Assembly (NCBI GenBank): GCA_964422435.1
Contig: CAYRBB010000007.1
Location: forward strand, 12,363 to 76,362
DNA from: an uncultured Sphingomonadaceae bacterium
Lineage (GTDB): Bacteria; Pseudomonadota; Alphaproteobacteria; Sphingomonadales; Sphingomonadaceae
Reading direction: 5' to 3'
DNA: 64,000 nt
A program made the position numbers and the translations under genes. Positions 9,365 through 13,345 of this stretch are shown piece after piece (the first letter of the stretch is position 1; the number at the start of each line of letters is the position of its first letter). Below the pieces are notes generated by a model. It saw only the letters and a list, made by a program, of their open reading frames with translations. It did no database searches and was not told the DNA's origin.

Positions 9365-9967
9365 TCAGCGCCGCTGGAATCGCAAGCCGATTACCGGTGG
9401 AGCAGTCCGATCCTCTCGCCCTTCTAGCCCCAAATTGTTGTCAGCGGCGTCTTGCACAAGATCTCCCAGAGACGATGACTCAACATAGAGAACGCCGCCA
9501 GGCACAAGAACACTGGCGATCGCTGCCGCATCGAACCCTCCGTCAGCCTCCAGTACCCAGACCATGTCGAGCGTAGAGACTGCGGCGATATCCGTTACCA
9601 GTTCGATATTTCCGTATCGTTCGGCGAGCTCACCGAAAACCGCCCGAGCGCCCGCATCGTCCGGTGCTACAACCACGTAGAGACGCCCCGTAGGTCCAAT
9701 GGCCTGTGCGAGCAGTCGCGTGTAATAGCCTTCTCCAGGCGATATTTCGAGGACGCGCTGCCCTGTGTTCACGCGCGCAAACAGCATCGTTTCAAAAGGC
9801 CGGCGCTGCGCATCTTGTGCCACATGCTCAGCTGGGCGTGCGGGGCTGACAACCGACGCGAGAAGCAGTTCCTCCCGCTGAATAGCGGCAAGGTCGTTCG
9901 AAGTGTTGGACACGCACGCCGAGAGCACCAGCACGGCGATAGCGACGACCGGAATCAAAAAACGCAT
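9365..9967 (-). CDS. Putative lipoprotein with class I SAM-methyltransferase-like core
   Basis: Lipobox VLSAC; VLEISPGEGYYTRLLA resembles MTase motif I; SD AGGAG. Confidence 0.65.
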   Translation of the reverse strand: MRFLIPVVAIAVLVLSACVSNTSNDLAAIQREELLLASVVSPARPAEHVAQDAQRRPFETMLFARVNTGQRVLEISPGEGYYTRLLAQAIGPTGRLYVVVAPDDAGARAVFGELAERYGNIELVTDIAAVSTLDMVWVLEADGGFDAAAIASVLVPGGVLYVESSSLGDLVQDAADNNLGLEGREDRTAPPVIGLRFQRR

Positions 9968-10045: not shown

Positions 10046-12847
<2,802 letters not shown>

Positions 12848-12934
12848 GGTGGACTACCTGTTTGAAAATATGTGGAAATAGGCCGCGCAGAACAGCGCGA
12901 CCGAAAAAGTCTGTGCGGGGCTGGAAAGGCGGCG

Positions 12935-13198
12935 CTATTCGCGCGCGCGGTCTGCCTGCAACTGCACCGTAGGCGGAGTCACCACAACCGGGCGATTAAT
13001 GCACAGGCGATCCGGCGAACCGACGCCGATCTGCCGTGCCGGGACAAGTTGTGCGGGGGCGACGACAACCGGCTGGCAATCGGTCTTTTGATCCGTGCTT
13101 GCCACGCTCACCACAGCGCCCTGGGCAGCGGCCACAGGCTCTGCTGCGAGCGTGAAGCCCGAAATAACGGCAAGCAGGGTGAGCAATTGGCGGAGCAT
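12935..13198 (-). CDS. 87-aa secreted hypothetical protein upstream of secA (candidate secretion-monitor/arrest peptide)
   Basis: From ATG 13198: MLRQLLTLLAVISGFTLAAEPVAAA|QG signal peptide; two Cys; ends PVVVTPPTVQLQADRARE*; co-oriented, 87 nt before secA. Confidence 0.7.
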   Translation of the reverse strand: MLRQLLTLLAVISGFTLAAEPVAAAQGAVVSVASTDQKTDCQPVVVAPAQLVPARQIGVGSPDRLCINRPVVVTPPTVQLQADRARE

Positions 13199-13345
13199 GT
13201 TGGGTGTCAGATAGCGATTGTAGCCGCGAAGTCTATGGGTGAATGCGCGAATGCCCGGTGAAAAGGCCGCACAAGCTGGTCGCTTCGCAGCATATCCTGC
13301 CATCATTAGCCAATTTCTAATGGTTAATGGCTAGTTCTCGCCGAT

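Follow-up and report, generated by a model that had tools for sequence, protein, structure and literature searches.

Genes at the secA locus

The window analysed here is the whole 64,000-nucleotide stretch of DNA from an uncultured Sphingomonadaceae bacterium, and all positions given below refer to it. The secA gene is located on the minus strand between positions 10046 and 12847, and codes for a protein of 933 amino acid residues carrying all five SecA Pfam domains. Upstream of secA and on the same strand lies a small leader open reading frame, hereafter uORF, that was delimited by ORF translation and by its homologs. It starts with ATG at 13198 and ends with TAG at 12937–12935, and consists of 87 codons (87 amino acid residues) plus the stop (12935–13198, minus strand). 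The initiation codon of secA at 12847 is exactly 87 nt past the uORF stop. A co-oriented ORF of this length and at this distance from secA had been noted in a preliminary description of the locus, and both its coordinates and its translation agree with ours. The uORF product is MLRQLLTLLAVISGFTLAAEPVAAAQG...PVVVTPPTVQLQADRARE, the tail of which is also given as NRPVVVTPPTVQLQADRARE, and at the window locus it ends with LQADRARE directly before the stop.

The uORF product matched no family in Pfam (E<=1) or NCBIfam, and no Rfam family was found over the uORF–secA region. A longer reading of 123 residues from ATG 13306 was rejected, as conservation begins at M1 of the 87-residue form and the upstream part is promoter-like. 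An antisense ORF of 129 residues lies opposite the leader gene (12872–13261, plus strand); it is most likely spurious because the third-position variation tracks the minus-strand frame. On the 3′ side of secA, an ORF of 200 residues (9365–9967, minus strand) has a lipoprotein-like N-terminus (…VLVLSAC…) and matched no Pfam family at E<=1e-5.

Distribution of the uORF and its linkage to secA

Within the same genus, a homolog of the uORF was found in all 24 other genomes. Among 5.8 billion proteins searched, 120 relatives of 85–100 residues were found which, where named, belong to Aurantiacibacter or Erythrobacter. By profile search of the GTDB family, exactly one uORF copy was detected in 157 of 401 genomes and in 49 of 112 genera, and 392 uORF clusters (50% identity) were recovered when 1.84 billion cluster representatives were searched with a profile. 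The named hosts are Aurantiacibacter, Erythrobacter, Alteraurantiacibacter, Altererythrobacter, Altericroceibacterium, Croceibacterium, and Porphyrobacter. In every one of the 82 distinct loci parsed, secA is located on the same strand at 74–142 nt downstream of the uORF; these loci are phylogenetically related and are not independent trials, so that the locus counts overstate independence, although synonymous sites neighbouring the fixed codons of the uORF end (see below) are saturated in the same set. The uORF is a real, conserved gene.

Some database entries name the homologs as hypothetical or 'UrcA family' proteins, the UniRef name 'UrcA family protein' being attached to P0016, P0023, P0024, P0041, and P0075. 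The 'UrcA family' name of these leader peptides looks like an annotation artefact, because none of 40 members of the uORF family matched the UrcA models of NCBIfam at E<=1.

Other small ORFs were observed upstream of secA within the same GTDB family. In genomes of other genera without the DRAxE leader (L047, L049, L060, and L061), a second uORF family is located 101–116 nt upstream of secA; its members have the N-terminus (M/L)xLLLFLSALLSGLTGVISG, in some cases with TTG as the start codon, and the tails SEKRQE, HERRRE, GERRQV, and NESWLE are followed by TAG or TAA. This second family may be distantly related to the DRAxE leader or only analogous to it. In yet another genus (L054), a signal-peptide-like uORF, MRFLLLLSAFFAALVSPVNA...EPALYAMKPRL, ends with TAA at 70 nt upstream of secA and is unlike both the DRAxE leader and the second family.

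Signal peptide, middle region, and C-terminal tail

The N-terminal part of the uORF product (residues 1 to about 25, MLRQLLTLLAVISGFTLAAEPVAAA; 13124–13198, minus strand) was assigned as a Sec-type signal peptide from its conservation, its AxA motifs, and an AlphaFold helix at residues 2–15, the position of the cleavage site being approximate. By inspection, the n, h, and c regions and an AxA site were recognized, the site reading PAQA or PAHA in other genera, in agreement with the signal peptide proposed in the preliminary description. In the alignment, its N-terminus is near-invariant, MLRQLLTLLA...G, with the codons varying synonymously. The following Val/Pro/Ala-rich middle of about 50 residues (12974–13123, minus strand) is variable and unalignable, with no conserved columns and pLDDT of 46–61; most members carry two Cys residues, and the pair is missing in several. 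AlphaFold2 modelling with the family alignment gave only the signal-peptide helix (mean pLDDT 61, pTM 0.26) and no confident fold for the mature part, which thus looks like a spacer rather than a folded domain.

Conservation returns at the C-terminus. A candidate arrest motif, P76-x-V78-x-L80-x-x-D83-R84-A85-x-E87 (12938–12973, minus strand), was defined from 259 proteins, in which the positions of P-x-V-x-L-x-x-D-R-[A/S]-x-E are occupied by P in 250, V in 236, L in 204, D in 259, R in 255, A or S in 258, and E in 255. The D-R-[A/S]-x-E part of the motif lies in the last five residues, directly before the stop, in all 259, and the variable position between R-A and E is R, H, L, Y, or F, never Pro or Gly. 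The preliminary description had proposed a test for a conserved C-terminus, a variable middle, and synteny with secA across Sphingomonadales, and in the loci and proteins compared here the outcome was as predicted: the terminal xxDRAxE is kept, the middle varies, and the synteny is strict. As judged from sequence comparison, this combination of a near-invariant signal peptide, a variable middle, and an invariant tail abutting the stop is the pattern of a secretion-monitoring arrest peptide.

Codon usage within the tail separates two modes of conservation. Synonymous variation is abundant at P76 (4 codons), V78 (4), L80 (6), A82 (4), D83 (GAC 35, GAT 11), and A85 (4). The free change at synonymous sites argues that the peptide itself is under selection, and the codon tables show peptide-level selection from positions −12 to −3. 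Two other codons are fixed at the base level, R84 being CGC in 45 of 46 loci and E87 being GAA in 79 of 81. The stop codon, TAG at 12935–12937 (minus strand) in the window, directly follows E87 in every homolog; among the 82 distinct loci, TAG was found in 79, TAA in 3, and TGA in none. For comparison, the long ORFs of the same genome end with TGA in 53%, TAG in 27%, and TAA in 20%, and GAA accounts for 55% of Glu codons. Around the stop, the sequence CGC-GCG-NNC-GAA-TAG-CGC is kept at the base level.

Promoter-like elements upstream of the uORF

Upstream of the uORF, a −10-like element CTATCTG (13208–13214, minus strand) was recognized from its position-specific conservation across genera, together with a −35-like element TAGACT (13230–13235, minus strand; family consensus [T/A][G/A]GAC). 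The pair [T/A][G/A]GAC-N17/18-TA[T/C]NT was present upstream of the uORF ATG in 42 of 46 loci (L001–L046; 13199–13345 in the window). The −35-like TAGACT was not flagged by a promoter scan with the E. coli consensus. About 10 nt separate the end of the −10-like box from the uORF ATG, and most loci are without a Shine-Dalgarno (SD) sequence, so that the uORF mRNA is probably leaderless. Taken together, the upstream region probably contains a sigma-70-type promoter, predicted to give rise to a leaderless or near-leaderless uORF mRNA. The promoter-like pair, with no SD sequence behind it, predicts a leaderless first cistron of the secA operon across many genera.

A second sequence of this kind was noted in the spacer. 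Before the SD sequence of secA, CCATATTATCTGAC (12861–12875) is kept within the genus (L001–L020) and has TATCTGA in common with the −10-like box of the uORF; it lacks a −35-like partner, and other genera do not share it. A secA promoter inside the spacer, at the genus-conserved CCATATTATCTG, was rejected, as it has no −35-like element and is not conserved outside the genus.

Predicted RNA structures in the spacer between the uORF and secA

The spacer contains two predicted hairpins and a C-rich tract. In hairpin A (12929–12948, minus strand; assigned from folding energies), the stem is formed by the R-A-R codons and the bases immediately behind the stop, leaving GAAUA(G) in the loop. The mean MFE of hairpin A was −11.2 kcal/mol, compared with −7.7 kcal/mol when post-stop bases from other genes were used, and one compensatory change was found, in locus L012. 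The conservation of the last codons could in part be due to hairpin A, and not to the peptide or RF1. Behind the stop follows a C/U-rich, G-poor tract (12903–12931, minus strand), recognized by base composition, which is possibly a rut-like site. Positions +11 to +20 after the stop contain 40% C, 30% U, and 9% G. Over the whole spacer, the C-over-G skew was positive in 46 of 46 loci with a mean of +0.25, compared with a mean of +0.02 for control co-directional intergenic spacers of the same genome, about 7% of which reach +0.25. The conserved feature is a hairpin flanked on either side by C-rich, G-poor sequence, directly behind the stop-linked motif.

Hairpin B, GGUCGCGC-UGUUCU-GCGCGGCC (12881–12902, minus strand), has a predicted energy of −15.6 kcal/mol. 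A GC-rich hairpin B was present in 46 of 46 loci. It starts 26–44 nt past the first stop base in 43 of them (the outliers at 16, 19, and 74), and in most loci some 30 nt lie between its end and the secA ATG. The loops are variable, and the outer pairs of the stem are not the same in all genera (for instance, GGCC...GGCC vs GCCC...GGGU). The mean MFE z-score of the spacer was −1.46. RNAalifold over the spacer alignment found no compensatory pairs, and a covariance model of hairpin B gave no clean covariation count because its matches fell on both strands of the near-palindromic stem. Between hairpin B and secA, comparison of the sequences across loci showed a pyrimidine- and A/U-rich stretch followed by the secA SD sequence (12857–12880, minus strand; AGG at 12859–12857), and ACAGGA before secA is kept in nearly all loci.

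These structures bear on several claims of the preliminary description. The spacer hairpin proposed there is indeed present at 12902–12881, but the U-rich run said to follow it is a pyrimidine-rich run with no canonical U-tract. In most loci, hairpin B is followed by a weak U-tract or by none, and no terminator was flagged by the scan; hairpin B was accordingly rejected as a canonical intrinsic terminator. The D-R-A-R-E codons had been suggested to pair alternatively with the arms of this hairpin: the complementarity does exist, and RNAalifold picks CCGCGC:GCGCGG, but no covariation was detected and single-sequence folds favour the local hairpins. The pairing proposed between the VVTP codons and the secA SD/start region was at chance level, giving −15.6 kcal/mol in the window against −13.6 kcal/mol for shuffled sequences, 26% of which were as good, and it is not conserved across the family (mean −12.5 against −13.8 kcal/mol for shuffles). 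When the footprint of a ribosome at the stop was masked in the thermodynamic prediction, accessibility of the secA SD/AUG was unchanged (mean 0.39 in both cases), and the predicted partners of the SD sequence differ from genome to genome, with no conserved SD-sequestering helix found. Unmasking of the SD sequence by a stop-stalled ribosome was rejected on these two grounds, and with the VVTP pairing at chance level the RNA-refolding scheme for secA was not supported. The preliminary interpretation is thus partly supported: its main idea holds as a candidate, and the RNA scheme found no support.

A proposed model for monitoring of secretion by the uORF peptide

The four in-silico criteria applied to monitoring substrates in earlier surveys (Sakiyama 2021; Fujiwara 2024) all describe the uORF. 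It is a small uORF without known family just upstream of secA; it carries an N-terminal secretion signal; it has the conserved motif P-x-V-x-L-x-x-D-R-[A/S]-x-E; and the gap exceeds 30 residues, counted in these surveys from the localisation signal to the end of the conserved motif. The distance from signal peptide to tail is here about 60 residues, within the range seen for Sec monitors. We therefore consider the uORF as a strong candidate, on sequence grounds, for a new family of stop-linked arrest peptides. Our best reading, with a probability of roughly 0.6, is that the uORF is the first cistron of a uORF–secA operon and that its product is a regulatory nascent peptide which monitors secretion and belongs to a family not described before, for which we propose the provisional name uA_DRAxE-stop. 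A counterpoint to the arrest reading is that neither Pro nor Gly would be positioned at the peptidyl-transferase centre, and that the tail resembles no validated arrest motif.

The mode of action may be pictured as follows. Transcription from the conserved promoter would give a leaderless or near-leaderless mRNA. The last 12 residues, P-x-V-x-L-x-x-D-R-A-x-E, would hinder release at the RF1-read UAG while still in the exit tunnel; less likely, the step hindered by the tail would be the final round of elongation, when GAA occupies the A site. Inhibition of RF1-mediated release is favoured because the motif is directly followed by the stop in every case, RF1 can read all of the stops, and the last sense codon is fixed. 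When the Sec machinery engages the exposed signal peptide and pulls the chain, the block would be relieved, and the dwell time of the ribosome at the uORF end would then report the export capacity and set the level of secA expression. The same three features (abutment, RF1-readable stops, and fixed last codon) point to the stop codon as a part of the arrest element, as in the NSP-stop, NAP-stop, and DGMK-stop families.

With respect to the output, our leading guess, held with low confidence, is a TnaC-like route, in which the stalled ribosome would shield the C-rich, G-poor tract from Rho. A SecM-like opening of the secA ribosome-binding site is ranked second. The full scheme, namely Pro-free, RF1-linked termination arrest on a leaderless mRNA, sensing Sec activity as SecM does and signalling as TnaC does, such that the UAG-held ribosome shields the Rho tract and secA is transcribed only when export is limiting, is tentative and in all its details rather improbable.

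Three other explanations were weighed against the monitoring peptide. The uORF might regulate secA through the act of translation or RNA structure alone, with no specific nascent-chain arrest, the last codons forming an RNA element whose hairpin loop holds the stop; passage of ribosomes could control Rho polarity or remodel hairpins A and B, or the signal peptide could target the secA mRNA to the membrane. We regard this as unlikely. The base-level conservation of CGC-GCG-NNC-GAA-TAG-CGC, the advantage of hairpin A over random post-stop sequence, the compensatory change in L012, the complementarity of the DRA codons to the invariant GCGCGG of hairpin B, and the C-rich, G-poor nature of the spacer all agree with such a role of the RNA. 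However, the amino acid conservation accompanied by free synonymous change reaches 12 residues upstream (P76, V78, L80, A82, and D83), well outside hairpin A, and the 259 proteins show little or no variation at D83, R84, and E87. Moreover, an exported peptide with a spacer of more than 30 residues is not called for by RNA structure alone.

The uORF product could also be an ordinary small secreted periplasmic protein that merely shares the secA operon, its C-terminus acting after export as a ligand or processing signal with no programmed stalling. The canonical signal peptide, the two Cys residues in most members, and the hypothetical or 'UrcA family' protein names in some databases are in line with this idea, but the middle is unalignable, the Cys pair is missing in several members, no confident fold was obtained, and the UrcA name is without an NCBIfam match in 40 members. 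It also leaves unexplained the linkage to secA in 82 of 82 loci, the fixed architecture of the spacer, the lack of TGA stops, and the fixed GAA, and it appears quite improbable.

Highly improbable is a classical trp-type attenuator, with a stall several codons before the stop, hairpin A as the pause structure, hairpin B as an intrinsic terminator, and an antiterminator formed by pairing of the post-stop bases with the 5′ arm of hairpin B. In its favour, the stop lies in the loop of hairpin A, as in trpL, the GC-rich hairpin B is found in 46 of 46 loci, and the segments are mutually complementary, but the antiterminator pairing was rejected as no stronger than that of shuffled sequences (mean −8.35 vs −8.21), the U-tract is weak or absent in most loci with no terminator flagged, and an upstream stall leaves the amino acid conservation of D-R-A-x-E unexplained.

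The monitoring-peptide reading matters for several reasons. Little is known of how secA is regulated outside Gammaproteobacteria, and every arrest motif newly described has revealed another way of disabling the catalytic centre of the ribosome. If true, D-R-A-x-E-stop, with no Pro or Gly, a near-absolute requirement for UAG/UAA, and a fixed GAA, would provide a new test case for the blocking of release factors by nascent chains. It would also add a secA-linked monitor in Alphaproteobacteria, for which the arrest peptide named in the portions of the surveys covered, ApdP, sits upstream of secDF, and it might provide a new force sensor for studies of co-translational export. Should the Rho-shielding UAG-arrest reading be true as well, it would represent a new arrest chemistry, with D-R-A-x-E at the peptidyl-transferase centre, and a pairing of input and output not described for any secretion monitor.

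Comparison with known arrest peptides

The preliminary description had considered the uORF a candidate exported leader upstream of secA with a C-terminal motif unlike those of SecM, VemP, and RAPP, and this view was upheld. The uORF motif gave no match to SecM, VemP, MifM, RAPP/RQH, LPPP, KYxIW, NSP/NAP/DGMK-stop, LudP, or CliM. The survey by Fujiwara et al. (2024) screened Sphingomonadales genomes, and the uORF family does not appear in the parts of its text and supplements examined; likewise, Sakiyama (2021) lists sphingomonad genomes, and the portion of that source covered gave no hit for the uORF family. A full-text literature search combining 'arrest peptide' with 'Sphingomonad' gave no paper. 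As far as these sources were examined, the uORF family is absent from the published arrest-peptide surveys (30,000 genomes).

ApdP and the RAPP/RQH family, mostly found upstream of secDF, share with the uORF the nature of an exported sec-gene leader with an R-A dipeptide near the end, and ApdP represents a class present in Alphaproteobacteria. Unlike the RAPP/RQH members ApdA, ApdP, and ApcA, the uORF family is without [R/Q/H]-[A/G]-P-P, R-A-P-G, and R-A-G-P in all 259 proteins. LudP of Lacrimispora, encoded upstream of secDF, shows Pro-free arrest at D-G-E-K|E with an essential Asp133, and also arrests with a stop as the A-site codon (bioRxiv 10.64898/2026.10.26.761930). In the uORF, D-R-A-R|E is likewise free of Pro; read in this way, it would have Glu in the A-site position and Asp three positions ahead of the residue in the P site. 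This LudP-like alternative register would place residue 86 in the P site while Glu-tRNA occupies the A site; this resemblance is only a lead because the P-site position is variable in the uORF family. The likeness is confined to D-x-x-basic-E, as Gly134 and Lys136, essential in LudP, correspond to the invariant Arg84 and to the variable R/H/L/Y/F position, respectively. LudP is in addition Gram-positive-specific, has further codons past the arrest site, and shows no detected homology with the uORF.

SecM, encoded by secM–secA of Enterobacterales and relatives, is also an exported leader immediately upstream of secA and has the same regulatory target. The logic expected is likewise the same: when export is defective, the stall would last longer and SecA would increase. 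Unlike SecM, the uORF product has neither FxxxxWIxxxxGIRAGP nor a match to the SecM Pfam family (E<=1). The stall of SecM occurs during elongation, when Pro-tRNA occupies the A site and four codons are still to follow, whereas the uORF motif ends at the stop. Furthermore, SecM opens an SD-masking stem-loop, whereas no such conserved helix was found at uORF–secA, and the mRNA is here predicted to be leaderless.

TnaC, the leader peptide of the E. coli tna operon, blocks the action of the release factor at its own stop codon, and the stalled ribosome masks the adjacent Rho-loading site. The C-rich, G-poor spacer located right behind the uORF stop would fit a similar Rho-shielding output. Different from the uORF product, TnaC senses free tryptophan, is not exported, ends with Pro-UGA (read by RF2), and is only 24 residues long.

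Stop-dependent arrest peptides are represented by uA_NSP-stop of Sphingobacteriaceae, located before secA, uDF_NAP-stop of Bacteroidota, and uDF_DGMK-stop of Clostridia, as described in the covered portion of Fujiwara et al. (2024; PMC10987492), and the stop codon is needed for arrest in these three families (PMC10987492). The uORF family differs from them in its motif D-R-A-x-E-stop, with no C-terminal Pro and no DGMK, in its occurrence in Alphaproteobacteria, and in having no detected sequence homology. Features further distinguishing the uORF family, for which arrest is a candidate property, are the strong TAG/TAA-only bias, the fixed GAA, and the stop placed inside a hairpin loop. With NSP-stop, NAP-stop, and DGMK-stop, it shares the overall design of a uORF of a sec gene, in which a localisation signal at the N-terminus is followed by a variable spacer and a short conserved motif that abuts the stop.
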